DNA of 64,000 nucleotides from contig CBDDCK010000005.1 in the NCBI GenBank assembly GCA_965225855.1, forward strand, positions 288,001 through 352,000, given 5' to 3'. The notes beneath the pieces are model-generated. The model was not told the origin of the DNA, ran no database searches, and saw only the letters and a program-made list of their open reading frames with translations. The position numbers and the translations under genes are program-made. This stretch comes from Spirochaetia bacterium (lineage in GTDB: Bacteria > Spirochaetota > Spirochaetia > SP-2023). Positions 2,017 through 45,394 of this stretch are shown in pieces (position 1 is the stretch's first letter; each line of letters starts with the position of its first letter).

Positions 2017-4215
2017 ATGTATAAGCACAAACTACTTTTATTGCCTGTAGCATTGCTACTGGCATTTATGGCCTTGGCCTGCGCACCACCCGATGACGAT
2101 GATCGATCTTCTGGGCCGTCTAAGCCGACTATCAATAACGCCATCTACGACTTTGCTACGGCTCTGTTAACCGTACAAGGTACTGACTTAAGTCCTACAG
2201 AAGCGCAAATCCAAACCATCGTAGTAGATGGCATAGCTTTAGATTCCTATACTGCAGATGACCCAGCCACTGGGCCAGATAGTAACGGTCTTGCAAAAGG
2301 TAAGTACCGTATTAAAAGCGATGGCACAAAGCTTTGGCTGAAACTTAAAGATGAACATAAAGCTGCTCTTGAGGCCAAGGTGGGTAGCAATGGTCTAAAA
2401 AAAGGGTTGCTTACTAGCTCTGGTGCTTGGGCGGGTTTAGATACAGCCAAAGACTTAACCGTTAGCAATATACCCGATAAGCAGACCGAAACCGAAGAAG
2501 AGTCGCGTAAGCAAACTGAAGACGAACAAGCTGAAGAAGTCGAAGAGCAGTCGCCTAAGCAAGCTAAAGCCGAACAAGTCGAACAAGCTGAAGAAGAGTC
2601 GCGTAAGCAAACTGAAGTCGAACAAGCTGAAGAAGAGTCGCGTAAGCAAACTGAAGTCGAACAAGCTGAAGAAGAGTCGCGTAAGCAAACTGAAGTCGAA
2701 CAAGCTGAAGAAGAGTCGCCTAAGCAACCTAAAGCCGAACAAGTCGAACAAGCTGCAATTACCCGTGCAAGCTACCATGTTGGCACGGCGCTGTTAACCG
2801 TACAAGGTTCTAACTTAAGTCCTACAACTGCGACCCAAGCCCAAATCCAAACCATCGTGGTAGATGGGGTAGCTTTAGATTCCTATACTGCAGATGCCAC
2901 AGCCACTGGGCCAGATAGTCGTGGTCTTGCAAAAGGTAAGTACCGCATGAAAAGCGATGGCACAGCGCTTTGGCTGAAACTTACCGATCAACATAAAGCT
3001 ACTCTGAATGGCAAAACAGGTATGGATAGCAATGGTCTAAAAGATGGGTTGCTTACTAGCACTGGTGCTTGGGCGGGTTTAGATACAGCCAAAGCCTTGG
3101 ACGTTAGTGGAAACCCCGCACCCACAATTACCCGTGCAACCTATGATGTTACTATAGGCTTCTTAGTGATTACAGGTACTAATTTACCAAAAGCAGTTAC
3201 AGGCTGGGACTTTAGGAAATTGAGGTTTGTCGCAGGTGATGGTAGTAAGAGATACACATTACCACAGCACGACTCATTTTCAGGTAGAAACTCCGCCACA
3301 GGTTCTCGTGCAAGTGCAACAAGCTTACAGATTAATTTAAAGGGTAGTGTAAAAACGGAAGCCGATAAGATACTGGTTAACGATGGTGATAGTGATGCTA
3401 ATGGTGCATACAACCTGGAAGCAGCAGCAGGATTTGCAGGTGGTAGCGCAGAAGACACAACCAATCCTATTACCGTTAGCGGGTATACAGCCAGCATCAC
3501 CGAAGCAACCTACGATGCTAATACAGGCGAGTTATATATTACAGGTGTCAAGTTACCGAGAGCAGTTGCAGACTGGGACTTTAGCAAATTGACACTTGTA
3601 TCCGGTGATGGTAGTAAGAGATACCCATTACCCGAGCACGCAATAGGTGAAAACACAGCCACAGGTTCTAGTCCAGGTGTAACCTACTTAACGATTACTT
3701 TAAGCGGTAGTGTAAAAGCGGAAGCCGAGAAGATACTGGTTAACGATGGTGATAGTGATGCTAATGGTGCATACAACCTGGAAGCAGCAGCAGGCTTTGC
3801 AGGTGGTAGGGCAGAAGACACAAGCAACCCGATTACCGTTAGCGGGTATGTAGCCAAAATCACCTCCGTAATCTACTTTGCTAGTAGAGGCTTGTTACAG
3901 ATTGCAGGTGTTAGGTTACCGAGAGCAGTTGCAGACTGGGACTTTAGCAAATTGACGCTTGTATCCGGTGATGGTAGTAAGAAATACACATTACCACGGC
4001 ACGCAACCGCAGGTGAAAACACAGCCACAGGTTCTAGTGCAAGTGCAACAGGCTTAAATATTACTTTAAGCGGTAGTGTAAAAGCGGAAGTCAATAAGAT
4101 ACTGGTTAAGGCTGGTGAAAGTGATGATGCTGGTGCATACAACCTGGAAGCAGCAGCAGAATTTGCAGGTGGTAGTCCAGAAGACCCAACCACTGGTATT
4201 AATGTTATAAGGTAG
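2017..4215 (+). CDS. Modular surface lipoprotein/adhesin, paralog 1 (A-linker-A-B-B-B)
   Basis: ATG 2017 after GGAGG; signal peptide with lipobox MALA-C; repeated ~120-aa beta-rich domains; acidic linker. Confidence 0.85.
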   Translation: MYKHKLLLLPVALLLAFMALACAPPDDDDRSSGPSKPTINNAIYDFATALLTVQGTDLSPTEAQIQTIVVDGIALDSYTADDPATGPDSNGLAKGKYRIKSDGTKLWLKLKDEHKAALEAKVGSNGLKKGLLTSSGAWAGLDTAKDLTVSNIPDKQTETEEESRKQTEDEQAEEVEEQSPKQAKAEQVEQAEEESRKQTEVEQAEEESRKQTEVEQAEEESRKQTEVEQAEEESPKQPKAEQVEQAAITRASYHVGTALLTVQGSNLSPTTATQAQIQTIVVDGVALDSYTADATATGPDSRGLAKGKYRMKSDGTALWLKLTDQHKATLNGKTGMDSNGLKDGLLTSTGAWAGLDTAKALDVSGNPAPTITRATYDVTIGFLVITGTNLPKAVTGWDFRKLRFVAGDGSKRYTLPQHDSFSGRNSATGSRASATSLQINLKGSVKTEADKILVNDGDSDANGAYNLEAAAGFAGGSAEDTTNPITVSGYTASITEATYDANTGELYITGVKLPRAVADWDFSKLTLVSGDGSKRYPLPEHAIGENTATGSSPGVTYLTITLSGSVKAEAEKILVNDGDSDANGAYNLEAAAGFAGGRAEDTSNPITVSGYVAKITSVIYFASRGLLQIAGVRLPRAVADWDFSKLTLVSGDGSKKYTLPRHATAGENTATGSSASATGLNITLSGSVKAEVNKILVKAGESDDAGAYNLEAAAEFAGGSPEDPTTGINVIR
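2494..2757 (+). repeat. Acidic linker tandem repeats (39-bp unit, EEESRKQTEVEQA)
   Basis: Three consecutive exact 39-bp units at about 2590-2706 plus degenerate flanking units. Confidence 0.9.
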
Positions 4216-4485
4216 GGTTTGGTTGTTGCGGTAAGCAATGCTTGGTTGGCCTATTGTTCGCTTTTAGAACATAGGCTAAGTAGGCAAGCAAGGTTTGGGC
4301 TTTATGCCAAGCTTTGCTTGCCTTTTTTGTGGTTTTCTAGCAAGGTGCGGGACTGGTTTAATACAGCCAATTTTCTGGTGCGTAAATTGCCACCCAAACT
4401 AGCGTCTTCTTCTCGCATTTCCAAAGCCAAAGAAACTAAAGCAAAACCATTTACTAAAATAGACTTGAAACAGTTTTTATTACCA

Positions 4486-4632
4486 CCTTGGCTAAATACG
4501 GGAAGAGCTTTCGGTAAATACGGGGAGAGCCTTGGCTAAATACGGGGAGAGCCTTGGCTAAATACGGGGAGAGCCTTGGCTAAATACGGGAAGAGCCTTG
4601 GCTAAATACGGGAAGAGCTTTCGGTAAATACG
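4486..4632. repeat. 22-bp tandem repeat, about 6.7 units
   Basis: CCTTGGCTAAATACGGG(A/G)AGAG with variant CTTTCGGTAAATACGGGGAGAG; no spacers. Confidence 0.92.
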
Positions 4633-4659
4633 TTTTGCCTGAAAGGCTGCACTTTGGAG

Positions 4660-5766
4660 CTATAATTCAGGGTACTTATGTTCCAGTTCCAGCATGGTTT
4701 GGCATGCTTGGCGGGCAAGTTCTGCAGCGGGGTTGTTGGCTTTTTGCACTGTTTGGCTGTAGGGTGGGCTTAGCATTCGCCGCCAGTACTGCGCTTGGGC
4801 TAGCCCATACCATACAGTTAGCAAAGGCCATATTTGGGCTGCAATACTTTGCTCTTTAGGGTTCTGCTCCAAATAGTGGGCATAACGCTCTATCAGCTCC
4901 GAACGTTTGTGCACAGCTTGTACCCCGCTATTTATATTGAGGGGGGCTGATGGCAACATGGCTTGCGCCAGCATTTGTTTGCGAATATGGAATAACTCCC
5001 AAGTATTTTCATAACTCACACGTCCCAACATTACGCCATCGACATGGGGCCAAACTTGGGCAATTTGTTGGTAGTTTTTTAGCCCGCCATTGAGTTCTAT
5101 GGGTAGCGAAGGCTGTATTTCTTGGCGCAGTCGAAAGACTAGAGGGTAGTTTAGTGGCGGTATTTCGCGGTTTTGTTTTGGGTTGAGTCCATCGAGCACC
5201 GCTATACGGGCATGGACAATTAAGCGGTCACAGAAGGGGGCTACTTGCTGTAAAAATTGGTACAGTTGTTGTTTGCCCCAAGCAGCGATACCACGGCTTT
5301 TTTGTTCAATCCCCAAGCGGTGCTTCAGCGTTATTTGTGGCAAAGGTTGGGATTCTAAATAAAAGTGTTTGGTATCGCGCAGAGCTTGGCGCATGGCTGC
5401 TAGAATATCGGCCACCAAAGGCCCATCATTCATGAGCACCACACCGATATTGCGGTTTTGCACCCTATCACTGGGGCAGCCGGCATTTAAATTAAATTCT
5501 GCAAAATGGCTATTTTGCTGGGCGCAAAACTCGCGCGCAATCAAGACCGCTCGGTAAGCTTCTTTGGGGCAATGGCTGCCCAGTTGCAGGGCAACGGGAG
5601 ATTCGCAAGGGGCTAAACTGAAAAAACGTTGGGGCGGATTATTGATAATGGCCCCAGTGCTAAGCATTTCGGTATACAGCCACATTTCTGGGAATAGCTG
5701 CCGAATAAAATAGCGGAAGTGCGGCTCGGTTTTGTCGATCATCGGAGCCAAAGCGATGCGAGGCAT
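4660..5766 (-). CDS. dusA: tRNA-dihydrouridine synthase, DusA type
   Basis: LAPM, LYTEM, NLNAGCPS, VHARIA.L.GLNPKQNREIPPLNY, GVMLGR motifs. Confidence 0.9.
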   Translation of the reverse strand: MPRIALAPMIDKTEPHFRYFIRQLFPEMWLYTEMLSTGAIINNPPQRFFSLAPCESPVALQLGSHCPKEAYRAVLIAREFCAQQNSHFAEFNLNAGCPSDRVQNRNIGVVLMNDGPLVADILAAMRQALRDTKHFYLESQPLPQITLKHRLGIEQKSRGIAAWGKQQLYQFLQQVAPFCDRLIVHARIAVLDGLNPKQNREIPPLNYPLVFRLRQEIQPSLPIELNGGLKNYQQIAQVWPHVDGVMLGRVSYENTWELFHIRKQMLAQAMLPSAPLNINSGVQAVHKRSELIERYAHYLEQNPKEQSIAAQIWPLLTVWYGLAQAQYWRRMLSPPYSQTVQKANNPAAELARQACQTMLELEHKYPEL

Positions 5767-5772
5767 TATGCT

Positions 5773-6738
5773 CTATTGTTGGTGTTGGCGGAACGGGCTT
5801 TTTTGGCCTTCTTCAATTAGTTTTTGGTGAATCGGAGCCGCTTCGTTGTGGAGTTTATCCAGCTCTTGCATAATCGCTTCACAGACTTTATCTTTAATTA
5901 GTTTTTTATCGGCACCTTCAAAATCTAGCTGGTTTTGAGCCATTACCCTATCGCGGAATTGACGCCCCTTGACGATTGTTGCAGCACTCATCAATACTAC
6001 ATTTTCTTCTACTAGGTCATTTTCCATATTCTCATCTTTGGAAGGTATCAAGCAAAAACCGTTCAAGCCAACAAACAATATATTTTGAAATACTTTCAAA
6101 TAACTTGCTGCCTCGCGCACAGCCCGTTTGCTATCTGGGTTCCAAGGCCGATAGCGCGTGCCGGTAGGGAAAACCAAGATAATACGGCCACGGTATTTAT
6201 GCCGCGTCATCTCACCGATAGCATTTAAATTCATCGGAGTAGAAATCGCGCGAATTTTACGCCGCTCTTCCTCATCTTGGATTTGGTCAATATGGCGGCT
6301 AGGGTAAATGGTAATGGACGAATAAGCACTGGAGAGAATGGGGGTTGCGCGGTTGCCCAAAGTGAGCTTATATGCTTGTATCGGTAGCAGGGCATCGGCA
6401 GCTTCCTTGCCCAATTGGGGGCTGCGCTCAAAAAAGCGGAGCAAGGCCGGAAAGTCAAAATTGCTATAGTGTTCCATCATAATTAGGCAAGACTCACCTT
6501 TTTTACAGCGTTGCCATAACTCGGTAAACTGCTCTATATTGCGCAGGCCCGAGCCAGGCAGCATTAGCCGGTCGGCCATATTGCAAATAATATTGCGGTA
6601 AAAGGGAATGCCTGGGCTATAGACATTATCGGGAGTTATTTGTGGTATTTCTACATTTGGATTGTCGATGATCTCTTGAATGACTGGAGCAAAAAGCTCG
6701 ATAAACGTCATGCCTTGGCGGAGTTTTGTTTCTTTCAT
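5773..6738 (-). CDS. Glycerolipid acyltransferase (GPAT/PlsC superfamily)
   Basis: Catalytic HX4D (HYSNFD) and VFPTGTR block. Confidence 0.75.
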   Translation of the reverse strand: MKETKLRQGMTFIELFAPVIQEIIDNPNVEIPQITPDNVYSPGIPFYRNIICNMADRLMLPGSGLRNIEQFTELWQRCKKGESCLIMMEHYSNFDFPALLRFFERSPQLGKEAADALLPIQAYKLTLGNRATPILSSAYSSITIYPSRHIDQIQDEEERRKIRAISTPMNLNAIGEMTRHKYRGRIILVFPTGTRYRPWNPDSKRAVREAASYLKVFQNILFVGLNGFCLIPSKDENMENDLVEENVVLMSAATIVKGRQFRDRVMAQNQLDFEGADKKLIKDKVCEAIMQELDKLHNEAAPIHQKLIEEGQKSPFRQHQQ

Positions 6739-6949
6739 AACATTCCTTATCTTTTTATTTATTTGGAAAGTTTCCAGCCAAATTGGACAATACTACTCTG
6801 AATAAAACTGTCAAATGGTAACAGTTTTGCGACAAATTGCAACGGCTTAGCTAAGCGAATAAGCAATTATGGACAAATTTTATAGTATTTGCAAGCTAAT
6901 ATATAGCTTTGAGGCTCACTATATTACAATAGTTTATGGAGGTATTTAT

Positions 6950-7608
6950 ATGCGAGCCAATGTTATTTATATCTTTGTTGGTGGGGCTAATAGTAGCGTT
7001 ATCCTGTAGACTTTAGGCGATGATCAAGAAAAGAATAACACCATAACCCAAGCCCCAAAAGGTTATACCACCTAGTGCTTATGAACTAGGTTTCAGTAGG
7101 GTAGGATTAAAGACAAATCTGGCCATTATGTGCTTAGTAAAGTAGAACAAGGAAAGTCCCTTTACTTGCGCTTTATACTATATTGGGCTAATGGCTATTT
7201 AGCCCAGTACAATGACCGATCAATAATCAAAAGACTTAGTAGCCGGCCTTGCCATTGCCCAAGACCAAACGCCAAGACCAAACGCCAAGACCAAACGACT
7301 AAGCAAATCAGAGAGCGAACAGCTTCCCAAGCCCAAACCAGTCAGCAAGCACGAAAAACTACTGTACAAAAACTTTAAGATTGACATAGGGATTGCTTCT
7401 TTACATATCCATGATGTATTACAGCAGTGCCAGGACAACGGCTATGGTATTTTGTGGTTGTCGGGTAACAAACTGGAAGAACTGGATAACAAGCTTATCA
7501 CTCAATAGGGCCCCACTAGCGCAAATGGATAAGGATAAAGTCAACGTCAAGGCCCTACTACAATTAAAGCAGGGTGCTGGGGTTTGGGCTAAGGCCCTAC
7601 TCCAATGA
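6950..7608 (+). pseudogene. Decayed lipoprotein gene
   Basis: GGAGG + ATG 6950; lipobox-like LIVALSC in a shifted frame; several stops; 13-bp repeat CCAAGACCAAACG x3. Confidence 0.4.
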
Positions 7609-7673
7609 CGTAAATAAAAGTTATAGAGGCCAAAGCTTCCCATAATGTGGGCTTAGAATTACACTAGCGCGCC

Positions 7674-10600
7674 ATGAATCCTGATATATCTACCAAGCAA
7701 ACACCACAACGATTACTCGAATTACTACAGAAGCGAATCTTTAGAGAAAATACGTGCTGGGCAAAGCAACTATGGCGTGAAAGCACACAGCTTAACCCTG
7801 CAATAGCCATATCCCAGATTCTACAGCAACACAGTAAGCTATTAGTTGTATTGCCTAGTAGTGAAGAAATCCAGCAGATTGCCGATGACCTACAAGCCTT
7901 AGGCATAGAACCCTTAATCTTGCATAACTGGAGCAGCAGCCTATATAAAGGTATCCGTTCGCAAAACCGCTTATTTACCAAACGCAGCTCGGTACTAGCA
8001 CGTATACTGTTAAACACAAGCTCTGCGCCTCTGCCTATACTGTGTAGCTTGCGCTCCCTAGCGAAGGTACTACCCCCACCTGCAGAATTTCGTAAACAAA
8101 TCCTACAGTTGCAAGTAGGCAGCGAACTACAACCCAGCAATTTAGCCCAATTATTAAGCAGCTACGGTTACTACCGAGTACCGCGCGTAAGCCTGCCGGG
8201 TGAATTTGCCCTACGTGGTCAAGTGTTGGACTTCTACCCTCCTGAAGATGGGGCCAGTCATACAACCAGTGAAACCCATGAGGTCGGAAGACCAAGCAAA
8301 GTAGCAAGTCAACAAGCTGTACGCGTGATGTTTGGCTTTGATGAAGTAGAAATGCTAAAGGTTTTTGATATTAGCAGCCAAATATCACAATACAGTATAG
8401 CAAGCTTTTCACTATACCCCCTAAAAGAAGTCCTATGGCACCAAATACAGCTAGATAATCTGCGTCAGCACTTAGAAGAAACACTGCTTGGTGAACTGGA
8501 ACAAGGCAACATTGATGAAGAGTTACTAAATGCCCAGCTTGATGAAGTCAACCACCTATTGGGCCAGTTAGCCATACAACAAGAAGTAAAAGCCGAAGAA
8601 TTACTCTTCCCTTTTGCTTGGCAGCAGCCAGCCAGTATTTTGGACTATATAGCAGAAAGTCCTCTACTATTTTGGGGACACCAGCGTATAGAACAACAAG
8701 AGCAGAGCTATTTGCTAGAATTGGAAACATTATATGAGCAAAGCATGGCTGCATTCCAACAAGCTAACCATAGCAGTAAAGGTAGTAAGGGCAGCTCTAA
8801 GCAAGTAGAGAGAATATTCCCCGAATCACTGCAACGTAAACTGTTGCACCCCAAATACTTTGCTGTAGATTTAAGCGCATTGCTCAGTAGCTGTGCACAG
8901 CCTATTATCGTTGATGAATTTGAAGGTAGCCCGTGGCCCATAGAGTTTGAGAGTCCCCTACAATACTATGGTAACATCAATCGCTTTACAGAAGATTTAA
9001 GCCATTGGTTGGAACAAGGGTTTTGCATTTGCATAGGCTGTTCTTCCAAGGGGCAAGCGCAGCGTTTACACCATATGCTACAAGCAACTATTCAACCCTA
9101 CCTACCAGCCGACCATCAGGGCCAGCAGAGTAGTGGTCAAGAACAAGGAGTCCATTTCTTTCCATTCCAATTGAGCCAAGGCATGCTGTTCCCCAAGCAA
9201 AAGCTGGTATTGGTACAAGAATGGGAAATACTGGGTAATGCCTACAAAGGCAGGCATCAAGGGGGCCAAAAGGCTAGGAATAGCGAAAAGGCCGAGCGCA
9301 TAGCCAATCGTTTAAGCCAAAGCCAAATCATTAGCTCTTTTGTCGAGTTAAGGGAAGGAGATACTGTTGTCCATGTACAGCACGGTGTAGGCCGTTTTAA
9401 GGGGATAGAGCGCGTTAGCACTTCGCGCATGGAGCGCGACTACTTAGCCTTGGAATATGCCAATGGCAATACTTTGTTTGTGCCAATTGAACAAGTTAAT
9501 ATGGTGCAACGCTACATTGGTAGTGGCGGTGAGTCTAGCCCAAAGCTGGACCGCATTGGTGGTAAAGCTTGGCAAGAGCGTAAGGCTAAAACCCAGAAAG
9601 CCGTAGAAGATATGGCCGACCGACTACTGCGCCTGTATACCCGCCGTGCGGCTGTTGATGGCTTTGCCTGCGCACCCGATGATGAGCTAGTAGAAGAATT
9701 TGAAGCCGACTTTCCCTATGATCCAACCACAGACCAATTGCAAGCAGTAGTACAAATCAAGGAAGACTTAGAAAGCCCTAGGCCTATGGATCGCCTACTG
9801 TGCGGTGATGTGGGCTTTGGCAAAACCGAAGTAGCCATGAGGGCTAGCTTTAAAGTGGCCAGCCAAGGGCGTCAAGTATTAGTGTTGTGCCCTACCACCA
9901 TTTTAGCCGAACAGCACTACCAAAACTTTAGCCAGCGTTTTAGCCGCTTTCCCTTGCGCGTTGCCATGCTCTCGCGCTTTGTCGAACGCAAGCAACAAAA
10001 AGAGGTGCTCGATTCACTAGAACATGGCAAGGTCGATATTTTGATAGGCACCCACCGCATACTAGCCAAGGATATTCACTTTCATGACCTAGGCTTGATT
10101 GTGGTAGACGAAGAGCAGCGTTTTGGCGTCAAGCATAAGGAACGCCTAAAAATGCTCAAGACTTCGGTGGATAGCCTGACCATGTCGGCCACGCCGATAC
10201 CGCGCACGCTGCATATGTCTTTAGTGCAGATTCGCGATATTTCTATGCTGACAACGCCGCCACGCAACCGCCAGCCGGTGGAAACTTTTGTGCGCGAGTT
10301 TAACCCTCAAAGCATAGCCAATGCAATCCGCCACGAGTTGAGCCGAAACGGGCAGGTGTTCTACCTGCACAACCGTGTGGAAGGCCTAGAAGAAATCTTG
10401 ATATTCTTGCGGGACTTGGTACCCGAAGCCTTGATAGAAATGGCCCACGGCCAGATGGATAGCAAGATGCTAGAAGATATTATGTACCGCTTTGTCCACG
10501 GTGGTTTTAATGTTCTGCTGGCAACGACTATCATTGAAAACGGCATTGATATTCCCAACGTCAATACTATCATTATCGACCGCGCCGACCGCTATGGTAT

Positions 10601-11567: not shown

Positions 11568-11640
11568 TTGCAAGGCCATTAACCGTAGGTACTACTCATG
11601 ACTAAGCCTCAACTTTGCTAGTCTTACGCCCTACAAGCTA

Positions 11641-11664
11641 TATTCTTGACGGCCGTCAAGAATA
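11641..11664. repeat. Perfect 24-bp palindrome
   Basis: TATTCTTGACGGCCGTCAAGAATA equals its own reverse complement. Confidence 0.9.
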
Positions 11665-11732
11665 GCTCTGGTAACTGAACTAATAGGGGTTCTCTAAGGG
11701 CAAATCACTCTGCTGCATGCCCGACTTACTGC

Positions 11733-24492: not shown

Positions 24493-25002
24493 AATGAAAG
24501 TCCTTATTTAAATACTACTCAAGGAAGCTATGCAAGAAACGAGCAGGAAGTTATCCTAGCAAAAATTCCAACTCTAGGGAAGGCAAGTACTAGAGTTTAT
24601 CAAGAAGCACATAGAACAAATAAAGAAATAATATCGTCTAGTCAATAACAATTTAGATTGGAATATTTTCAACTAAAATATTCGTGCTTTCTACTTAGGC
24701 CATAAGCCTATTGAAGAAATGACTGGCTATTGAATCAATAAGTCCAAAGATTTTAGCAAAAACATGATAATGCCTGCACTCTTTGCCCCTTTCTTTGCAC
24801 AGGGGCTTGTTCGGTTTGCGCCCATTAGCTTGGTTGTTTTAGCCTTTGGCTATATTGGCTTCCCGTATTTACCAAGGCTATAATTGGCCAATGCAAGCAT
24901 TGCAACAACAAGATACAGCCTAATAAGCCCAACAAAAAAGCCAACCAAGCATTGCTTGCAGCATTTACTTGGTTGGCCTGCCCGCTAGCTTTGACTTAGC
25001 TA

Positions 25003-27216
25003 CTATAAATTACCAACGATAATATAATTTGTTGTTGTGTCTGCTGGACTACCCATTACAAATCCTGCTGCTCCTTCAAGGTTGTAATAACCATCAGCAT
25101 CTTGAAAACCAGCTTTAACCAGTATCTTATTGGCTTCCGCTTTTACACTACCGCTTAAAGTAATAGTTACGCTTGTTATACTTGCTGCAGAACCTGTGGC
25201 TGTGTTTTCACCTACGGTTGCGTGCTGGGGTAATGTGTATCTCTTCTTACCATCACCGGATACAAGCGTCAATTTGCTGAAGTCCCAGTCTGCAACTGTT
25301 GTCGGTAAATCAGTACCATTAATCGTTAACACGCCTGTACCAACATTGTAGATTGCGTTGGTGATATGGCTTACACGCCCACTAACGGTAATAGGGTTAT
25401 TGCTTGTGTCTTCAGCGCTACCACCTGCAAATCCTGCTGCTGCTTCCAGGTTGTAAAAACCATCAGCATCACTATCACCATTCTTAACCAATATACTATC
25501 GGCTTTCCCTTTTTCAGTACCCTTTAAAGTAATCGTTAAGCTTGTTGCACTTGCACGAGAACCTTTGGCTCTACTAAAACCGAATGTTGGGTTGTGCCGT
25601 AATAATGGGGCACTCTTAGTACGACCATTACCTGCGACAAGCCTCAATTTGGTGAAGTCCCAGCCTTTAACTGTTTTTGGTAAATTGACACCTGTAATCA
25701 CTAACACGCCTGTAGCAGCATTGTAGGTTGCACGGGTAATTGTGGGTGGGTTTCCACTAACGGCCAAGGCTTTGGCTGTATTTAAACCCGCCCAAGCACC
25801 AGTGCCAACGCTAAGCAACCCATCTTTTAGACCATTGCTATCCATACCTGTCTTGCCATTCAGAGTAGCTTTATGTTGATCGGTAAGGTAAAGCCAAAGC
25901 GCTGTGCCAGCGCTATGCAGGCGGTACTTACCTTTTGCAAGACCGCGACTATCTGGCCCAGTGGCTGTGGCATCTGCAATATAGGAACTTAAGGCTAAGC
26001 CATCTACCACGATGGTTTGGATTTGCGCTTGGGTCGCAGTTGTAGCACTTAAGTGAGTACCTTGCAAGGTTAGCAGCGCCATGCCAACATGGTAGCTTGC
26101 ACTGGTAATTGCGGCTTCAGGCGACTCCTCTTCAGCTTGTTCGACTTGTTCGTCTTCTTCAGCTTGTTCGTCTTCAGTTTGCTTAGATGGCTGATTGTCA
26201 TCGGATACTTTAGACTGCTTATTTTCGGGTATATTCCTAACTTCCAAGTCTTTGGCTGTATCTAAACCCGCCCAAGCACCAGAGCTAGTAAGCAACCCTT
26301 TTTTTAGACCATTGCTATCCATACCTGTCTTGCCATTCAGAGTAGCTTTATGTTGATCGGTAAGGTAAAGCCAAAGCGCTGTGCCAGCGCTATGCAGGCG
26401 GTACTTACCTTTTGCAAGACCGCGACTATCTGGCCCAGTGGCTGTGGCATCTGCAATATAGGAACTTAAGGCTAAGCCATCTACCACGATGGTTTGGATT
26501 TGCGCTTGGGTCGCAGTTGTAGCACTTAAGTGAGTACCTTGCAAGGTTAGCAGCGCCATGCCAACATCGTAGCTTGCACTGGTAATTGCGGCTTCTTCGG
26601 CTTCGGTTTGCTTAGACAACTGCTTATCTTCAGCTTGCTTAGGCGACTGATCTTCGGCTTTAGGTTGCTTAGGCGACTGATCTTCGGCTTTAGGTTGCTT
26701 AGGCGACTCTTCTTCAGCTTGTTCGTCTTGTTCGTCTTCTTCAGCTTGTTCGGGTATATACTTAAAGACCAAGTCTCTAGGTGTATTTAAACCCGCCCAA
26801 GCACCAGAGCTAACGCTAAGCAAGCCTTTTTTTAGACCATTGCTACCCACCTTGGCCTCAAGAGCAGCTTTATGTTCATCTTTAAGTTTCAGCCAAAGCT
26901 TTGTGCCATCGGTTGCAATACGGTACTTACCTTTTGCAAGACCGCTACTATCTGGCCCAGTGGCTGGGTCATCTGCAGTATAGGAACTTAAGGCTACGCC
27001 ATCTACTACGATGGTTTGGATTTGGGCTTCTGTAGGACTTAAGTTAGAACCTTGTACGGTTAACAGAGCCGTAGCAAAGTCGTAGATGGCATTATTGATA
27101 GACGGCCCAGAAGATGGCCCAGAAGATCGATCATCGTCATCGGGTGGGGCGCAGGCCAAGGCCATAAAGGCCAGTAGCCAGGCTACTGGCAATAAAAGTA
27201 GTTTGAGCTTATACAT
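25003..27216 (-). CDS. Modular surface lipoprotein/adhesin, paralog 2 (A-linker-A-linker-A-B-B)
   Basis: Same signal peptide, lipobox and domains as 2017-4215; second and third A domains nearly identical in DNA. Confidence 0.85.
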   Translation of the reverse strand: MYKLKLLLLPVAWLLAFMALACAPPDDDDRSSGPSSGPSINNAIYDFATALLTVQGSNLSPTEAQIQTIVVDGVALSSYTADDPATGPDSSGLAKGKYRIATDGTKLWLKLKDEHKAALEAKVGSNGLKKGLLSVSSGAWAGLNTPRDLVFKYIPEQAEEDEQDEQAEEESPKQPKAEDQSPKQPKAEDQSPKQAEDKQLSKQTEAEEAAITSASYDVGMALLTLQGTHLSATTATQAQIQTIVVDGLALSSYIADATATGPDSRGLAKGKYRLHSAGTALWLYLTDQHKATLNGKTGMDSNGLKKGLLTSSGAWAGLDTAKDLEVRNIPENKQSKVSDDNQPSKQTEDEQAEEDEQVEQAEEESPEAAITSASYHVGMALLTLQGTHLSATTATQAQIQTIVVDGLALSSYIADATATGPDSRGLAKGKYRLHSAGTALWLYLTDQHKATLNGKTGMDSNGLKDGLLSVGTGAWAGLNTAKALAVSGNPPTITRATYNAATGVLVITGVNLPKTVKGWDFTKLRLVAGNGRTKSAPLLRHNPTFGFSRAKGSRASATSLTITLKGTEKGKADSILVKNGDSDADGFYNLEAAAGFAGGSAEDTSNNPITVSGRVSHITNAIYNVGTGVLTINGTDLPTTVADWDFSKLTLVSGDGKKRYTLPQHATVGENTATGSAASITSVTITLSGSVKAEANKILVKAGFQDADGYYNLEGAAGFVMGSPADTTTNYIIVGNL

Positions 27217-27395
27217 AAGCAATACCTCCAACAATGGATAAAGATTAACCAACCCATACGGGCTAGTCTGTAAATCCCCATTTTGCTAGGGGGGGTGTTG
27301 CGTCAAGGCCTATACAAGCTTTTTGTAAGTTTTTTTATGTTTGGGCACTTTTTTTGTGTGTTAGTGTTGTAAGGTGGTTCAAAATCCATGCCAAT
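27217..27395 (-). promoter_or_regulatory. Conserved leader, copy 2 (proximal part only; C7 tract)
   Basis: Reverse complement matches about 1810-2016. Confidence 0.65.
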
Positions 27396-35753: not shown

Positions 35754-36022
35754 TATGGCCATCAAATATAATCCCCTAGTTATTCAAAATTCATAGTCGC
35801 AATATTCTATCTGAAGATGCATCTACATGCAAGTTTTTTATTTTTCTTGATCTTTATACAAACAGAACGCATTTTGCAGGAGCTATAAGGCAAAGAAAAA
35901 TGCTTAGCTTTACCTAAGACTTTTACCCAACAAAAGTACAAGCATGTGAGGTCAAGGCCAACTGGAGGGTACAACTCAAAAACAATAGTAAAAAATAGGA
36001 TAGAGGGACGGCGATAAATAAC

Positions 36023-36214
36023 TTGGTTGAAAGAAAGTCTAGCAGTTTAGAGAAAGCTACCCCCGAGTACAACGGGTATAAGATGTATTTTGGCTTTGAC
36101 ACTTTGATCACTGATGAGGAGATGATAGAACAAGTGCGGGCAAATGACATATTCTTACTAACTCAAGATGACGACCATATCGAGATAGTGAATGACCATA
36201 TGAGAGCGTATTGA
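36023..36214 (+). CDS. Small hypothetical protein or gene remnant
   Basis: 63-aa ORF with protein-like composition; no recognised motif. Confidence 0.3.
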   Translation: MVERKSSSLEKATPEYNGYKMYFGFDTLITDEEMIEQVRANDIFLLTQDDDHIEIVNDHMRAY

Positions 36215-36491
36215 TAATGTCTTTAGAAAAAGTAACTATAGGTATCTCTAAGTTCGGATAGATAAGAACTCCTAGCCCGTGAAGATAATACTTCGGTTCC
36301 TTGCTAGCTATACTATTGTATTGAGTAGGTAAAAGTCTTCTCGCTTATCAAAATTGCTCTTTATACACCAAACTAGGGTAGGGTAGGCGTCTTATTTTTC
36401 TTTGTTTTGTAGTAAATGCTTTATTGCTCTAGCGATTGTGTAGTAATTTCAATATAGTTAAGGCCCTATTATAATCGCTAAAGGAGCTACT

Positions 36492-38330: not shown

Positions 38331-38351
38331 CCTTAAGTACTAGAACATAAT

Positions 38352-38383
38352 AAAAAAGCCTGACGAAATCGTCAGGCTTTTTT
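38352..38383. terminator. Bidirectional intrinsic terminator
   Basis: AAAAAAGCCTGACGA-AA-TCGTCAGGCTTTTTT between convergent genes. Confidence 0.9.
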
Positions 38384-38399
38384 ATTATAAAGACTTTGC

Positions 38400-39584
38400 T
38401 TAGTTTTGGAATACTAAGTAGTAGGTATAACTTAGTATTAAAGCAGGAATGGTACTATAAAAGGTTGCGTACAGGGCTGCTTTAGGGGAAAGGCTCAATG
38501 CAGGGAATAAAGCATCACCATCATTAGAAATTGCATTGCCTAACAATGCGGACATAGGGATAGTGCCATTGACATATAAAGCCGTGGTTAAAATCTGGGG
38601 GCCACAGCCCGGAAGCCAGCCAATTAAAACCCCAAGCAAAGGAACTAGGGGCCCAACCGTCTGGAATAGAGCTTCCAAATCATACCCCGTTAGGTATATA
38701 GCAACATCATACAAAGCAAAACCCAACACAACCCATAGTGTGATAAAACTGGTTTCAGCCACTACACGCCGCCGAAGTTTAGTTTCAGGGTTCATATGAA
38801 CAATGTGGGGCATGGACTCTTTAGGTGCCGATAGGAACGTTATCATTGCCAGAATTCCTCCAAAGATAGCAATATTGTCGGCAATAGCCGTTTCTCCAGA
38901 AGGATCAATCACTAAGTTCATATCGTATTGCAAAGCTGCCCCTATGCCAAGAAAAACCCCGGGAATCATCAAGCCTAACCAAAGATAATCCAGCGGTTTC
39001 CAAAAAGCTGGATTCATAGGAGCAGGCATAGATTTATTGCGATTGATAGCTTCTTTTTCTTTTGATAAGACCTTGGGAACAGGGAACATGTCCGTAATGT
39101 AGCCTGTAATAATCCCTACAAAGAATCCAACACCGATAACAATAAAGCCCGTTCTAGGTTGAGCTGCTAACAGGATAAAAGCTGCATCGCCCATAGTTGA
39201 AACCAAAGTTGCCGTCAACGCTCCAAATGTTAAACCACCCTTTACATATTGGGTTACAACCATTACAGCACCGCCACAACCAGGCAAACTACCCAGAGCA
39301 GAAGCAATAATGATTTGAGCTTTCGGATAGCGGGAAATAAATGTAGCAAAATCTATTTTGGCAATTTTTTCAAGGCCATAGAGCAACCCTAAAGTTAGTG
39401 CAACAAAAGTTGTAACACCTATATAAGCATCATTGATAGAACCAGAAATAACATTCCACAATTCAGGGCTTACCAGCATGATAGCTGTGAAAAAGATAAC
39501 TACGTAAAACGAACGCCACAAAGGAACAGATATAGGAACATATATGTTTGAGCGAACATCTTTCCTAAAATATAAATTAGACAT
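38400..39584 (-). CDS. Putative manganese/heavy-metal transporter (DUF2899 type)
   Basis: LPGCGGA, TMGDAAF, LPGCGPQI, AISNDGDALFP; about 10 TM helices. Confidence 0.8.
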   Translation of the reverse strand: MSNLYFRKDVRSNIYVPISVPLWRSFYVVIFFTAIMLVSPELWNVISGSINDAYIGVTTFVALTLGLLYGLEKIAKIDFATFISRYPKAQIIIASALGSLPGCGGAVMVVTQYVKGGLTFGALTATLVSTMGDAAFILLAAQPRTGFIVIGVGFFVGIITGYITDMFPVPKVLSKEKEAINRNKSMPAPMNPAFWKPLDYLWLGLMIPGVFLGIGAALQYDMNLVIDPSGETAIADNIAIFGGILAMITFLSAPKESMPHIVHMNPETKLRRRVVAETSFITLWVVLGFALYDVAIYLTGYDLEALFQTVGPLVPLLGVLIGWLPGCGPQILTTALYVNGTIPMSALLGNAISNDGDALFPALSLSPKAALYATFYSTIPALILSYTYYLVFQN

Positions 39585-39868
39585 TAAATCTCCTAAGAAA
39601 TAATAAGATACAGGAATTAATAAAAATTCTGATGATGTTTTTATACCCCCTATATAAATATATAGTTATTGTAAGAATATAAAGACAGTCAATATTAAAT
39701 TATACTGTTTAAAATATATTGAGACAATAAAATTTAAGCTAAATAAATTTTTGAAGGCGTTTTTTCGTTTCAGTAAGAGAATATTGAAGAGTGTATAAAT
39801 TATGTGTATGTAATGAAAGTAAATAAAAATTGTGTGTAAAAAATAACTTGATTTTTTGAATATTGCGC

Positions 39869-39896
39869 TTGACATAAAATGGATTTAGGCTATAGT
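39869..39896 (+). promoter_or_regulatory. Sigma70 promoter of the 16S gene
   Basis: TTGACA-16 bp-TATAGT, AT-rich upstream region, GC-rich discriminator, boxA-like TGTTCATTGACA at 39961. Confidence 0.8.
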
Positions 39897-40091
39897 AGCG
39901 CACACATCGCAGCTATCTATGAATATGGCATTGTTTATGTCGAAGAGCAGTGTATGCGAATGTTCATTGACAATAGAGAAGAGTAGGGAAGACATGACGC
40001 TTGTGTAGCAGTTTTATTCATTTGTTTATGTATGGGAAATGAGTGGCTGTAACAAGATGGAACAAACTTGCTAGCTTCGGCTAGTGTTAAT

Positions 40092-41659
<1,568 letters not shown>

Positions 41660-41737
41660 AAAGTGAAAGGGTCTCGTAAGAGAAAATAGAGCTTATAAGC
41701 TCAACAACAGTCATGTCTTCCTTAGTCTTTTTTATAT

Positions 41738-41771
41738 AAGAATCCCCAGCAATTTGTTGGGGATTTCTTTT
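41738..41771 (+). terminator. Intrinsic terminator after 16S
   Basis: AATCCCCAGCAA-T-TTGTTGGGGATT followed by a T run. Confidence 0.8.
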
Positions 41772-41983
41772 GTCTAGTTATATATTTAGAATCAAGATAT
41801 TTTTTATGCGAACAAATATTTTTTACAATTTGATTAGTGAACAGTGAAGCTCTATAATTTTCTTTTAATTTTATTTTTGTTTTTAGCTCCTTTGGGTTTC
41901 GTTCTTCTTTTTATAGTTAGAAAACGTTCGGAGCTTTTAAATAAAATTGGTAATATGAGTTTAAATTCTCGAGGAGGAAAATA

Positions 41984-42523
41984 ATGAAAAGATTGTGTCT
42001 TTTTTATCCCATATTATTAGTTATTGTTGCTATGTTTATGCAAGGATGCGCTAGTATAGTTAGTAAGTCAGAATATATTGTTAGTATCGCTAGTGAGCCT
42101 TCTGAGGCTACTGTCACGGTAGAAAATAGAGATGGTAAGCTTGTTTTTACCGGTACTACTCCTGCACAGGTAACTTTGCAATCGGCTGCTGACGTTTTTA
42201 TAAAAGGAAGCTATACTATTACTTTTGAAAAAGAAGGTTATACGAAAAAAGTTGTATCTATTGTAAGTAAAATCGATGGCTGGTATGTTGCTGGAAATTT
42301 CTTTTTTGGTGGGTTGCTCGGTTGGTTAATCATTGATCCAGTTTCGGGAGCAATGTGGACTTTAAGAGATAATCAAAATGTCCATGCCGATCTAACTGCC
42401 ACTTCTTCTCTACCTGATGATGCTTCGACAAAAGCTGTCTCTTCTATGGATGTTGGTCTGCGCGTAATGGCTTACAATGATTTGTCTGAAGATATGAAAT
42501 ATAGGCTTGTGAGATTGAACTAA
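41984..42523 (+). CDS. Lipoprotein with PEGA-like domain
   Basis: Lipobox MQG-C, ASIVS, SEPSEATV, GTTPA, FEKEGY, GNFFFGGLLGWLIIDP; strong RBS. Confidence 0.8.
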   Translation: MKRLCLFYPILLVIVAMFMQGCASIVSKSEYIVSIASEPSEATVTVENRDGKLVFTGTTPAQVTLQSAADVFIKGSYTITFEKEGYTKKVVSIVSKIDGWYVAGNFFFGGLLGWLIIDPVSGAMWTLRDNQNVHADLTATSSLPDDASTKAVSSMDVGLRVMAYNDLSEDMKYRLVRLN

Positions 42524-42569
42524 TTTTGGTTAAGAGTATATGTCTCAAATAATTTCTTTTTATTTCCCT

Positions 42570-42839
42570 TCATCTACTACAGTTTAACACAAGCACTATA
42601 TAAAGATTACTACTAATTTGCGCAAAAGTACTGTGAATGGTAAAAAGCTGTTGTGGCTTTAATGGTTGTAAATACTGTAACTGGATTTCGGCAACAACCA
42701 AGTGAATACCTTGCTGGCTAAGTTTGGGTACACTGAAATATTGCTTTATGGCAGAGTGGCGGGCATGTTCTAAATAATTTTGGTATACAGCATTATTGAC
42801 CACGCCTTGGTAATCACATTCGTAATCACGGACTTCCAT
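42570..42839 (-). pseudogene. YbgC/4HBT acyl-CoA thioesterase, C-terminally truncated
   Basis: VRDYECDYQGVVNNAVYQNYLEHAR; only 89 aa. Confidence 0.7.
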
Positions 42840-43069
42840 TTCTAAAATATGCTTGATCTTGTCCCTTTTTTGCCCCTTTTTGTTTCTTTAACCATTCCCT
42901 ATACCTTGGCATTATCCCATTCTTGAGCCAGTACCTTGCCCCACACAGCATAGTTTATACAGCTCCTGCAATTTGTGCAATATAACCTTCGCCTTCCACC
43001 TTTAGCAGTCTAAAGCCTGTAATTCAATTCGGCTTCCAAATTTTTTTGTTCTTTTTAGCTTGGTTGTTC

Positions 43070-43290
43070 CAGCCTTGATAATAAAATTTACCAAGGCTAG
43101 AATTGGCAAAAGCAGCCTTAATAAAAAAATTTACAGCCTTGACAAAAAAATTTGTAGCCTTAATAAATTTTTTTCCAGCCTTGGTATTTTCTCCATACCA
43201 AGGCTATAACTTGGTAAAAGCAGCCTTAATAAAAAAACTTACCAAGGCTGCAATTGGCCAACTAAGCATTGCTTACCGCAACAACCAAAC
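43070..43290. repeat. Degenerate AGCCTT/CCAAGGCT repeat cluster in the trailer of paralog 3
   Basis: Repeated CAGCCTT(A/G) and TACCAAGGCT units in both orientations. Confidence 0.7.
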
Positions 43291-43291
43291 C

Positions 43292-45394
43292 TTACTTACT
43301 AACGAATATACTAGTGGTTAGGTCTTCTGCGCTACCACCTGCAAATCCTGCTGCTGCTTCCAGGTTGTATGCACCATTAGCATCACGAAGACCTTCCTTA
43401 ACCAGTATTGCATTAGCTTCCGCTTTTACACTACCGCTTAAAGTAATCCTTAAGAATGTTGCACGTGCACTAGAACCTGTGGCTTTATTTTCACCTGCGG
43501 TTGCGTGCCGGGGTAATGTGTATTTCTTCTTACCATCACCGGATACAATCGTCAATTTGCTAAAGTCCCAGCCTGCAACTGCTGTCGGTAACCTGTTACC
43601 ATAAATATTTAACTTGCCAGTATTAGGAAAGTAGTATGAGAGGTCGATCTGGCTTACGTAGCCACTAACGGTAATAGGGTTGCTTGTGTCTGCTGCGCTA
43701 CCACCTGAAAATCCTGCTGCTGCTTCCAGGTTGTATGCACCAGCATTATCACTTTTACCATCGTTAACCAGTATCTTCTCGGCTTCCGCTTTTACACTAC
43801 CGCTTAAAGTAATCGTTAAGCTGTTTCTACTTGCACCAGAACCTGTGGCTGTGTTTGCACCTATTGCGTGCCGGGGTAATGTGTATCTCTTACTACCATC
43901 ACCGGATACAAGCGTCAATTTGCTAAAGTCCCAACCTGCAACTGTTTCCGGTAAACCGCCACCATTAATATATAACACACCTGTGTTAACATTGTAGTAT
44001 AAGTCTTTGATAAAACCTACATACCCACTAACGGTAATAGGGTTATTGCTTGTGTCTTCTGCCCTACCACCTGCAAATCCTGCTGCTGCTTCCAGGTTGT
44101 ATGCACCAGCATCATCACTTTCACCATCGTTAACCAGTATCTTCTCGGCTTCCGCTTTTACACTACCGATTAAAGTAATCTTTAAGAATGTTGCACTTGC
44201 ATTAGAACCTACGGCTCTGTTTATACCGGTTAGGTTGTGCCGTGGTAATGTGTATCTCTTACTACCATCACCAGATACAAGCGTCAATTTGCTAAAGTCC
44301 CAGCTATTCACTGCTTTTGGTAAATTAGTACCTGTAATCTCTAAGAAGCTTAAAGTAACATCATAGGTTGCACTGGTAATTGCGGGTGGGTTTCCACTAA
44401 CGGCCAAGGCTTTGGCTGTATCTAAACCCGCCCAAGCACCAGTGCTAGTAAGCAACCCATCTTTTAGACCATTGCTATCCATACCGTCCTTGCCATTCAG
44501 AGTAGTTTTATGTTGATCGGTAAGGTAAAGCCAAAGCGCTGTGCCATCGCTTTTAATACGGTACTTACCTTTTGCAAGACTGCGACTATCTGGCCCAGTG
44601 GCTGTGCCATCTGCAGTATAAGAATTTAAGGCTAGGCCATCTACAGTGATAGTTTGGATTTGCGCTTGTTGCGCACTAGCTAAGTGAGTACCTTGTAAAG
44701 TTAACAGCGCCGTGCCAACATGGTAGGTTGCACGGGTAATTGTGGCTTTAGGCGAATCCTCTTCGACTTGTTCGACTTGTTCGTCTTTAGGTTGCTTAGG
44801 CGACTCTTCTTCAGCTTGTTCGACTTGTTTGTCTTTAGGTTGCTTAGGCGATTGATCATCGACTTCTTCGGTTTGTTCGGCTTCGGGTAACTTAGGCGAC
44901 TCTTCTTCGGCTTCGGTCTTAGACTGCTTATCGGGTATATACTTAAAGACCAAGTCTCTAGGTGTATTTAAACCCGCCCAAGCACCAGAGCCAACGCTAA
45001 GCAACCCTTTTTTTAGACCATTGCTATCCACCTTGCCATTCAGAGTAGCTTTATGTCGATCGGTAAGTCTAAGCCAAAGCGCTGTGCCATCGCCTTTAAT
45101 ACGGTACTTACCTTGTTCAAGACCGTTACTATCTTCACCAGTGGCTGGGTCATCTGCAGTATAGGAACTTAAGGCTACGCCATATACTTTGATAGTTTTG
45201 ATTTGCGCTTCTGTAGGACTTAAGTTAGAACCTTGTATGGTTAACAGAGCCGTGCCAACATCGTAGATGGCGTTATTGATAGTCGGCTTAGACGGCCCAG
45301 AAGACGGCGCATCGTCATCGGGTGGGGTGCAGGCCAAGGCCATAAAGGCCAGTAGCAGTGCTACAGGCAATAAAAATAGTTTGAGCTTATACAT
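43292..45394 (-). CDS. Modular surface lipoprotein/adhesin, paralog 3 (A-linker-A-B-B-B)
   Basis: Same signal peptide, lipobox and domains as the other two copies. Confidence 0.85.
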   Translation of the reverse strand: MYKLKLFLLPVALLLAFMALACTPPDDDAPSSGPSKPTINNAIYDVGTALLTIQGSNLSPTEAQIKTIKVYGVALSSYTADDPATGEDSNGLEQGKYRIKGDGTALWLRLTDRHKATLNGKVDSNGLKKGLLSVGSGAWAGLNTPRDLVFKYIPDKQSKTEAEEESPKLPEAEQTEEVDDQSPKQPKDKQVEQAEEESPKQPKDEQVEQVEEDSPKATITRATYHVGTALLTLQGTHLASAQQAQIQTITVDGLALNSYTADGTATGPDSRSLAKGKYRIKSDGTALWLYLTDQHKTTLNGKDGMDSNGLKDGLLTSTGAWAGLDTAKALAVSGNPPAITSATYDVTLSFLEITGTNLPKAVNSWDFSKLTLVSGDGSKRYTLPRHNLTGINRAVGSNASATFLKITLIGSVKAEAEKILVNDGESDDAGAYNLEAAAGFAGGRAEDTSNNPITVSGYVGFIKDLYYNVNTGVLYINGGGLPETVAGWDFSKLTLVSGDGSKRYTLPRHAIGANTATGSGASRNSLTITLSGSVKAEAEKILVNDGKSDNAGAYNLEAAAGFSGGSAADTSNPITVSGYVSQIDLSYYFPNTGKLNIYGNRLPTAVAGWDFSKLTIVSGDGKKKYTLPRHATAGENKATGSSARATFLRITLSGSVKAEANAILVKEGLRDANGAYNLEAAAGFAGGSAEDLTTSIFVSK

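Follow-up and report, generated by a model that had tools for sequence, protein, structure and literature searches.

The stretch of DNA considered here, hereafter the window, comprises 64,000 nucleotides (nt) from a Spirochaetia bacterium known only from metagenomes (contig C5, C5:288001-352000, of a five-contig assembly of 2,712,625 bp), and its subject is a set of three ~2.2-kb genes that encode predicted lipoproteins built from two kinds of repeated domain, A and B. Much of what a preliminary description had proposed for these genes from the letters of the window was borne out. The three open reading frames (ORFs) are real (2017-4215 on the plus strand, 25003-27216 and 43292-45394 on the minus strand, with gaps of 20.8 and 16 kb between them), their proteins all open with the same signal peptide and lipobox, MYK(H/L)KL...LAFMALAC, and their domain orders are AABBB, AAABB and AABBB, as claimed. 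The leader that the genes were said to have in common is equally real, with a median pairwise DNA identity across the family of 0.917 at positions -120 to -1 (and of 0.58 at -400 to -201), and the proposed trailer box, GCAATGCTT(G/A)GTTGGC, is present after all three genes (4235-4250, 24940-24955 and 43257-43272). Repeated DNA around the three extends from ~200-700 bp 5' of the ATG to ~100-300 bp 3' of the stop codon. The features of the three loci are as follows.

Gene 1
1814..1830, plus strand: sigma-54-like box (TGGCAT-N5-TTTA type) of the upstream module, without the GC of a -12 element
1927..1953, plus strand: candidate sigma-70 promoter, TTGACG, 15-bp spacer with a C7 tract (1938-1944), CAAAAT; an element kept in 100 of 104 family copies
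2004..2008, plus strand: Shine-Dalgarno sequence GGAGG, 8 nt 5' of the ATG
2017..4215, plus strand: coding sequence, 732 amino acids (aa), AABBB
2017-2082, plus strand: signal peptide and lipobox
2131-2475, 2476-2757 and 2758-3120, plus strand: A1, acidic E/Q/K linker and A2
3127-3489, 3496-3852 and 3859-4212, plus strand: B1, B2 and B3
4235..4250, plus strand: trailer box GCAATGCTTGGTTGGC
4282..4333, plus strand: terminator-like hairpin of 17 pairs, then a T run

Gene 2
24940..24955, minus strand: trailer box
25003..27216, minus strand: coding sequence, 737 aa, AAABB
26755-27099, 26233-26586 and 25747-26109, minus strand: A1, A2 and A3
25372-25740 and 25006-25365, minus strand: B1 and B2
27214-27229, minus strand: Shine-Dalgarno site and ATG
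27280..27306, minus strand: candidate promoter with a C7 tract (27289-27295)
27377..27393, minus strand: sigma-54-like box

Gene 3
43216..43251, minus strand: terminator-like hairpin, GCAGCCTTGG...AAGGCTGC, then TTTT
43257..43272, minus strand: trailer box (GCAATGCTTAGTTGGC)
43292..45394, minus strand: coding sequence, 700 aa, AABBB
44936-45280 and 44387-44740, minus strand: A1 and A2
44018-44380, 43655-44011 and 43295-43648, minus strand: B1, B2 and B3
45392-45407, minus strand: Shine-Dalgarno site and ATG
45458..45483, minus strand: candidate promoter with a C6 tract (45467-45472) and a 14-bp spacer
45554..45570, minus strand: sigma-54-like box

Family size, domains and selection

The kinship of the three window genes stands, but a family of three was an undercount: they belong to a set of at least 104 intact paralogs, and the chromosome-wide repertoire that had been suspected is far larger than first guessed. 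The genome-wide count that the preliminary description had called for was made with a phmmer scan over all stop-to-stop ORFs, which gave 116 ORF matches (234,597 nt in all); 104 of these are intact, that is, at least 500 aa long with the conserved MYK.K...AC signal, and only some 11 further pieces are fragments, split genes or contig-edge copies. The intact coding sequences occupy 216,312 nt, or 8.0% of the genome. Copies are present on all five contigs, and contig C5 carries 82 of them, 43 on the plus and 39 on the minus strand, at a median spacing of 18,178 bp (range 1,562 to 119,424 bp). At ~80% nucleotide identity the paralogs are too diverged to be assembly duplicates. Further, in a ~98%-identical strain (two runs, from a second study) family sequence stands at a summed depth far above that of single-copy flanks, and contigs from the probable source run show such an excess as well; the contigs of all runs break at the repeats, and the summed depth does not give a copy number. 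Given that the excess recurs in runs of two studies, the family is not an artefact of one assembly.

That each gene has exactly five domains holds for the window and not for the family, in which domain number varies from one to eight A and from two to four B. The commonest architectures among 115 ORFs are AABB (36), AABBB (20), ABBB (15), AAABB (14) and AAAABB (9), followed by rarer forms. E/Q/K-rich linkers (median 39 aa, range 1-158) join one A domain to the next, and B domains abut one another directly. The closest kin of a domain is usually the domain at the same position in another gene (211 of 248 B, 168 of 244 A) and lies within its own gene in 28 cases; the main process is therefore duplication of whole genes, and duplication inside a gene was occasional. 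Long near-identical tracts are rare, and ongoing or recent gene conversion was rejected as the main force since only three gene pairs have a high-scoring segment pair of at least 99% identity.

Several unusual members deserve mention. Two divergent proteins, of 1,320 aa at C5:353640-357602 (1.6 kb past the window end) and 1,026 aa at C5:571721-574801, carry a third N-terminal domain type, interleave A and B (ABAABABB and ABBABA), and have a promoter spacer of 17 bp with a tract of only five C. A lipoprotein at C5:206266-209289 has ~850 aa of mucin-like Pro/Ser/Asn/Gln/Thr repeats (PSANNQQSTTN) in place of the stalk and a single terminal B. The next-largest paralog groups of the genome are 19 tetratricopeptide repeat proteins, 13 coiled-coil proteins of ~293 aa (DKRFEQV repeats) and seven ~669-aa proteins of unknown type; no other expanded insertion-sequence or transposase family was found among genome ORFs of at least 150 aa.

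The signal MYK(L/H)KL(L/F)LLP..LLAFMA(L/F)AC, with an invariant Cys, is present in 104 copies as judged by motif only, and its residues A-L/F-A at -3 to -1 form what we take to be a relaxed lipobox of the spirochaete type. From signal peptide, Cys and the presence in the genome of Lgt (PF01790, E 3.8e-58) and LspA (PF01252, E 5.7e-30), the family proteins are predicted to be bacterial lipoproteins. The three window proteins had been put forward as a candidate for an undescribed system, and nothing rose above cut-off in Pfam, NCBIfam or PDB sequence; Pfam, taken to E<=1, gave no family at its cut-off for any of the three, Big_2 and other Big domains included. The family is thus confirmed as new at the level of sequence. 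Structure modelling of A and B, which had also been proposed, predicts an immunoglobulin (Ig)-like sandwich for both: in AlphaFold models of an A-B didomain (predicted local distance difference test, pLDDT, 85) and of A alone (pLDDT 93) both domains are beta-sandwiches. For the didomain Foldseek returned tandem-Ig matches at E ~1e-4, and for A alone it gave no significant match. In a VIA-align run against 48,161 chains the best match for B was an S-layer domain of SbsC (Z 7.6, root-mean-square deviation 2.8 over 94 residues) and the best for A reached Z 5.8, and the S-layer Ig-like domains matched by the two (SbsC, EA1, Sap) are the same; SGBP-B lipoproteins of Bacteroides and Prevotella scored Z 5-6. 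A and B are probably distant homologs of each other, to go by their hhalign comparison (probability 75%, E 2.6e-5).

Beyond this genome the two domains have different distributions. The likeness of B to repeats of giant proteobacterial adhesins, at first a matter of recall, was found as 34-38% identity to ~124-aa repeats in a DUF4347 protein of Litoribrevibacter albus. A profile of the A-B junction matched 522 proteins at E<=1e-3 among 1.84 billion representatives, and in many of these, which are 1.5-5.5 thousand amino acids (kaa) long, the B part is repeated 5-31 times. Named holders of B-like repeats are Litoribrevibacter albus, Undibacterium sp. and metagenome-assembled genomes of Pseudomonadota and Bacteroidota; DUF4347 occurs in five of the eight top profile matches scanned, individual top matches also have Cadherin_4/5, Big_9, Calx-beta, RTX or OmpA domains, and no Pfam model covers the B-like stretch of the top matches. 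The A domain has been found so far only in this lineage and on a few metagenome contigs. A family protein (query P0001) had no match in the genomes of 40 relatives, the A-B profile none when run on a further 250 genomes of the class, among which were three congeners and two members of the same order, and the leader DNA was not found in five relatives. Scans of genome contigs (with P0001 and with the B alignment) and of metagenome contigs (with the A-B alignment) returned pattern matches and no relative. A collection of 5.8 billion proteins gave 93 matches, 87 from the organism's own genome and six on European Nucleotide Archive (ENA) contigs; small lipoprotein-like proteins with A and/or B do occur on a few ENA metagenome contigs, for example two A at 44-46% identity. 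A protein atlas held unnamed clusters only (best score 0.93).

Divergence is distributed unevenly along the genes. The first 105 coding nt have a median pairwise DNA identity of 0.924, the first A domain 0.853 and the last B domain 0.783, and the ratio of nonsynonymous to synonymous divergence (dN/dS), estimated by the Nei-Gojobori method on 49 disjoint gene pairs, is as follows (region; dN/dS; pairs in which the nonsynonymous proportion pN exceeds the synonymous proportion pS).

First 30 codons; 0.47; not counted
First A domain; 0.84; 15 of 49
Penultimate B domain; 1.24; 42 of 49
Last B domain; 1.96; 49 of 49

The distal (C-terminal) domains are under positive selection and dN/dS climbs towards the C-terminus; 300 random pairs gave the same picture as the 49 disjoint ones. 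Reading frames are intact in 104 copies, so that the divergence of B is not decay. In the first strands of B, hypervariable positions alternate with invariant hydrophobic core positions, which is the pattern expected of exposed faces on a conserved core. Of the earlier suggestion that the proteins are variable adhesins or antigens, what stands is the variability of the mature parts, as seen in dN/dS above 1 in the B domains.

The surroundings of the window genes are, as described before, housekeeping genes (dusA, mfd, tgt, accC/accD, hisHAF, birA, lysS, mutS and murB). At accC, three congeners keep accD-accC-accB and nothing beyond, and no empty site could be read there. The rRNA genes of the window are split, with a 23S 3' end and 5S at 1-728 and a lone 16S at 40092-41658, 39 kb off; both family gene 1 and family gene 3 have one of these parts no more than ~1.6 kb away. 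Three FlaA (PF04620) matches and a class I lysyl-tRNA synthetase in the genome mark the host as a spirochaete; the synthetase, at 53488-55137 of the window, is of the class I (archaeal) type, as in other spirochaetes.

Leader signals, cassette ends and a resident prophage

The core leader runs in constant order from TTGACG through a poly-C-bearing spacer to CA(A/C)AAT, followed after ~50 nt by GGAGG and after a further 8 nt by the ATG. This candidate promoter is present in 100 of 104 copies, and the Shine-Dalgarno site, ATG and signal peptide are present in all 104; each family gene is likely to be its own transcription unit. The -10 element (CAAAAT) is weak, a 4-of-6 match set by eye and by alignment with divergent copies, and the organism's own 16S promoter is a canonical TTGACA-16-TATAGT (window 39869-39896). 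Of 100 copies, 99 have a spacer of 13-15 bp, and the remaining one, at C5:803129, has 17 bp. The poly-C tract ranks among the top two points of the core leader for indel variation: among 101 copies it counts six C in 17, seven in 82, eight in one and nine in one, the copy at C5:803129. By inference, a conserved poly-C tract in a promoter spacer makes a slippage switch conceivable. Further upstream, a TGGCAT-N5-TTGA/TTTA box precedes 75 of 104 genes (median position -197; 78 copies in the genome). A canonical sigma-54 promoter was rejected for it: the box has the -24 element and is without the GC of the -12 element, in a genome in which RpoN is present. Downstream, 70 of 104 trailers contain one or other of two trailer boxes (43 and 39 copies genome-wide, nearly confined to trailers), and 40 contain the gene 3-type hairpin (42 copies genome-wide). 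Many family genes are also followed by tandem arrays in which a ~28-bp unit with the palindrome ATTAAGAGAGTCTCTTAAT is repeated, as downstream of C5:1904475, C5:147428 and C5:742290. The fold of the leader RNA was not significant (z -1.4), and Rfam gave rRNA matches only in the window.

Three known ways of varying a surface were considered and set aside. In lipoprotein families with invertible promoters, of the Mycoplasma penetrans mpl type, promoters lie in both orientations between inverted repeats; here, all 100 recognisable promoters point at their gene. An expression site with silent cassettes (vlp/vsp, vls) was rejected in view of a promoter in 100 of 104 copies and a start codon and signal peptide in all. 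A diversity-generating retroelement is unlikely given that no reverse transcriptase (PF00078) was matched in the genome, which is 94% complete.

The preliminary description saw no transposase or recombinase in view. For the window this stands, with no transposase match at E<=1e-10 among the 35 ORFs scanned; genome-wide it is misleading, for 40 of 104 copies keep the ends of a Mu-like prophage. High-copy 18-mers make up 35% of the 1-kb flanks of family genes against 2% of the remaining genome, and walking outward to the limits of the repeats leads to recurrent sharp termini. A 14-mer, AGGAC(G/A)TGATAACT, has 118 genome matches at up to two mismatches, and 97 of these stand in a bracketing inverted configuration at family genes, on the same strand ~820 bp (median) before the ATG or on the opposite strand ~270 bp (median) after the stop codon, mostly as a doublet 23 bp apart at both ends. 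Both ends are recognisable at 17 of the 104 genes, the upstream end only at 13 and the downstream end only at 10; of 18 end pairs, 17 have just one family gene between them, and end-bearing copies span all architectures. The cassettes so delimited are 2.6-3.9 kb long, start with TG (the ends begin TGAAAG/TGATGC) and finish with CA. Perfect 6-bp direct repeats (GTTATG, TATAAT, TATAGC, GTTAGG, CTTTAA) flank five of the 15 units that have both 20-nt termini, against 0.004 expected by chance. The prophage ends and 6-bp target duplications give substance to the phrase that these genes 'travel with their flanks'. A small ORF of ~100-117 aa (MLSKYHGNGPRSQKASKV...) recurs in the space from the phage left arm to the leader, for example upstream of C5:803129, C5:1724833 and C5:1592100, and could be either a genuine small gene or no more than conserved DNA.

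Matching ends are found on a prophage in the same genome. A 36-kb Mu-like prophage at C5:~1257680-1293766 encodes a helix-turn-helix repressor, an rve transposase, an AAA_22 MuB-like ATPase, DUF3164, GemA, Mor, protease I, gpT, Portal_Mu, Mu F, Gp27, terminase, DNA_circ_N and Baseplate_J, and its rve-type transposase is the only one in the genome. Its gene order is unusual, with the Gp27-terminase-portal-F block left of the repressor. The prophage right end is the cassette downstream end, identical over ~56 nt, and the prophage left arm is near-identical to the upstream arm of one cassette over ~270 nt; across cassettes, identity to the prophage has a median of 0.71 for left arms over 275 nt and 0.917 for right ends. 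Two further instances of this right end were located, one at C4:334785, where a contig ends next to tail genes, and the other at C3:768. Right-end copies at two contig ends (C4:334785-343005 and C3:1-768) suggest that at least two or three prophage copies exist and probably break the assembly. These contig ends with solo phage ends hold no extra transposase and instead prophage tail genes, a Type ISP restriction-modification enzyme and housekeeping genes; the Type ISP enzyme, at C4:331035-334562, adjoins the prophage end. Between the ends of the examined prophage copy there is no family gene.

Weighing the explanations

The explanation considered probable, if with appreciable doubt, is that the window genes belong to a dispersed family of at least 104 genes for predicted outer-surface Ig-like lipoproteins that likely spread as 2.6-3.9-kb 'mini-Mu' cassettes. 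On the evidence of their ends, the cassettes are likely to be naturally occurring mini-Mu-like elements that each carry a single lipoprotein transcription unit as cargo, and such elements are the likely origin of a substantial subset of the family. In this scheme the N-terminal Cys would anchor each protein to lipid, a stalk of A domains and acidic linkers would hold it off the membrane, and the fast-evolving B domains at the outer end would present a tip diversified for binding or as an antigen. The cassettes would have been moved in trans by the transposase of the phage, and most copies, the three window genes included, would later have lost their cassette ends. A bolder extension, which is tentative and rather doubtful, makes the transposable phage a diversification engine that pastes lipoprotein units, giving more than 100 coat genes whose tips are selected and whose promoters are switched by poly-C. 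Several points weigh against the mini-Mu reading. Transposition of the three window genes and of the other 61 copies without ends would be an extrapolation, for 64 of 104 genes, all three in the window among them, have no recognisable cassette end; the window itself has three matches to the 14-mer ends at three mismatches, none near the genes, where chance predicts 3.18. Target duplication is absent from 10 of 15 complete cassettes, the outer 11 nt of the left terminus differ in the C5 prophage copy, and the cassette arms have diverged from the prophage arm, which would make the mobilisation old. The surface exposure of the proteins is a prediction, structural Z scores all below 8 name a common Ig-like fold and nothing more, and the Nei-Gojobori method is simple and was applied to paralog pairs that have a common ancestry and are therefore not fully independent.

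The genes without ends and the units without duplications, together with flanks that are mosaics of several repeat modules, could instead reflect ordinary duplication and homologous recombination, with the phage-like ends as unrelated insertions near some copies. This is hardly probable: the end pairs almost always bracket a single family gene at constant polarity to it, five perfect 6-bp duplications lie exactly at the termini, and the end-bearing copies include all architectures. A different emphasis would place a phage gene at the heart of the matter, the lipoprotein being a lysogenic-conversion or superinfection-exclusion masker of receptors, carried on selfish mini-phage cassettes and selected in a phage-host arms race. 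The phage origin of the cassette arms on both sides, at least three copies of the prophage right end in the assembly, the absence of the family from all 250 searched relatives (consistent with import on a mobile element) and the distal position of the fastest-evolving domain all speak for such a history, which is nonetheless improbable, for the examined prophage copy is empty of family genes, the lipoprotein matched no phage protein family in Pfam and NCBIfam (PHROGs was not scanned), and 104 intact copies go far beyond the needs of exclusion.

What the repertoire is for divides two further explanations, each unlikely as it stands and each with something in its favour. The genes may be contingency loci, each switching alone by poly-C slippage so that a cell wears few of the 104 coats, an idea compatible with the mini-Mu reading. 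The tract sits exactly between TTGACG and CA(A/C)AAT and is indel-prone (C6-C9) in an otherwise 92%-identical leader; the 13-15-bp spacers compare with 16 bp in the organism's 16S promoter, and the two divergent members combine the 17-bp spacer with a better -10 element. However, C6-C9 is short for a slippage switch, the -10 call on which the idea depends is the 4-of-6 match made by eye and alignment, and an activator could make up for a short spacer. Alternatively, all copies may be expressed together and constitutively, as a coat or ligand-capture repertoire of SGBP-like glycan binders or S-layer-like proteins diversified for substrates and not for escape. The near-universal promoters, ribosome-binding sites and signal peptides agree with this, as does the small number of fragments (only 11); the structural neighbours are SGBP-B (Z 5-6, with Foldseek probability 0.97-0.99 for the didomain) and the SbsC/EA1/Sap S-layer domains (Z 5.2-7.6); and nothing ties an organism known from metagenomes to a vertebrate host. 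Against a co-expressed coat, the Z values name a generic fold only, the window family genes adjoin housekeeping genes and not transporters, and a dN/dS of ~2 across a whole domain points more typically to an arms race than to specialisation for substrates.

Comparison with known systems

Large families of variable surface proteins are central to the persistence of spirochaetes and mycoplasmas, and the route by which they dispersed is seldom visible. In this genome the footprints survive, with phage ends, target duplications and donor prophage all present, and they point to phage transposition as a way to amplify a host-facing gene to 8% of a genome. The closest parallel for the carrier is mini-Mu and the Mu/B3-like phages, Leptospira prophages among them, which are alike in TG...CA termini, repeated transposase-binding-like sites and 6-bp duplications; Leptospira transposable prophages are reported to be 36-39 kb long, to end in TG-CA and to leave scars of 6 bp, and the duplications made by phage B3 likewise measure 6 bp (PMC8705779). 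The autonomous partner of the cassettes would be the 36-kb prophage, which has the same ends together with an rve transposase and a MuB-like ATPase. What sets the cassettes apart from mini-Mu and transposable phages is that the phage interior is replaced by a single host-type lipoprotein unit, at tens of sites. A natural, amplified, cargo-carrying mini-Mu was not found in the literature, in which mini-Mu was met only as an engineered construct, and a search not guided by the organism's name found no account of the family or of natural cargo mini-Mu swarms.

For the cargo, parallels exist among spirochaete lipoproteins. The Erp and Mlp families of Borrelia, joined by an 'upstream homology box' (UHB), have one locus on each of about ten cp32 plasmid-prophages and unrelated folds; they resemble the present family in a common promoter, leader and signal peptide with differing mature parts, and in phage-derived carrier DNA, and differ from it in that the copies here are chromosomal, 104 in number, arranged as transposon-like cassettes and composed of Ig-like domains. 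Borrelia vsp/vlp and vlsE likewise constitute a large variable repertoire of surface lipoproteins in a spirochaete, but work through one expression site fed by gene conversion from promoterless archives or silent cassettes, whereas the present copies are complete, nearly always have their own promoter, and rarely have near-identical conversion tracts (three pairs). The Neisseria opa genes, which switch in a coding repeat, are comparable in being complete, dispersed genes that are each a possible independent switch. Homopolymers inside a promoter spacer are known from opc, porA, Bordetella fim and Mycoplasma hyorhinis vlp, where the tracts that switch the promoter are longer than those found here; if the poly-C tracts do switch, the family would be among the largest contingency repertoires relative to genome size.

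In architecture, Leptospira Lig and Bacteroides SGBP-B are similar: a lipid anchor at the N-terminus, Ig-like domains in series behind it, and a distal part that is functional. Lig, however, comprises two or three genes and belongs with Big_2, to which, as to every other Pfam model, the present proteins have no match, and SGBPs sit in polysaccharide-utilisation loci. The giant DUF4347 or 'tandem-95 repeat' proteins of Pseudomonadota (Litoribrevibacter albus WP_284381991.1, Undibacterium sp.) have the same ~124-aa repeat as B, in single proteins of 2-5.5 kaa with 5-31 tandem copies, some with RTX repeats and none with a lipobox; here, two to four copies of B are set on a small lipoprotein behind lineage-specific A domains. 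An unannotated Ig-like repeat of ~124 aa, widespread in giant adhesin-like proteins, thereby gains a context and a testable role. Borrelia Erp/UHB, opa, Lig, SGBP-B and mini-Mu each have a part of this combination, and none of them unites all the features of the family.

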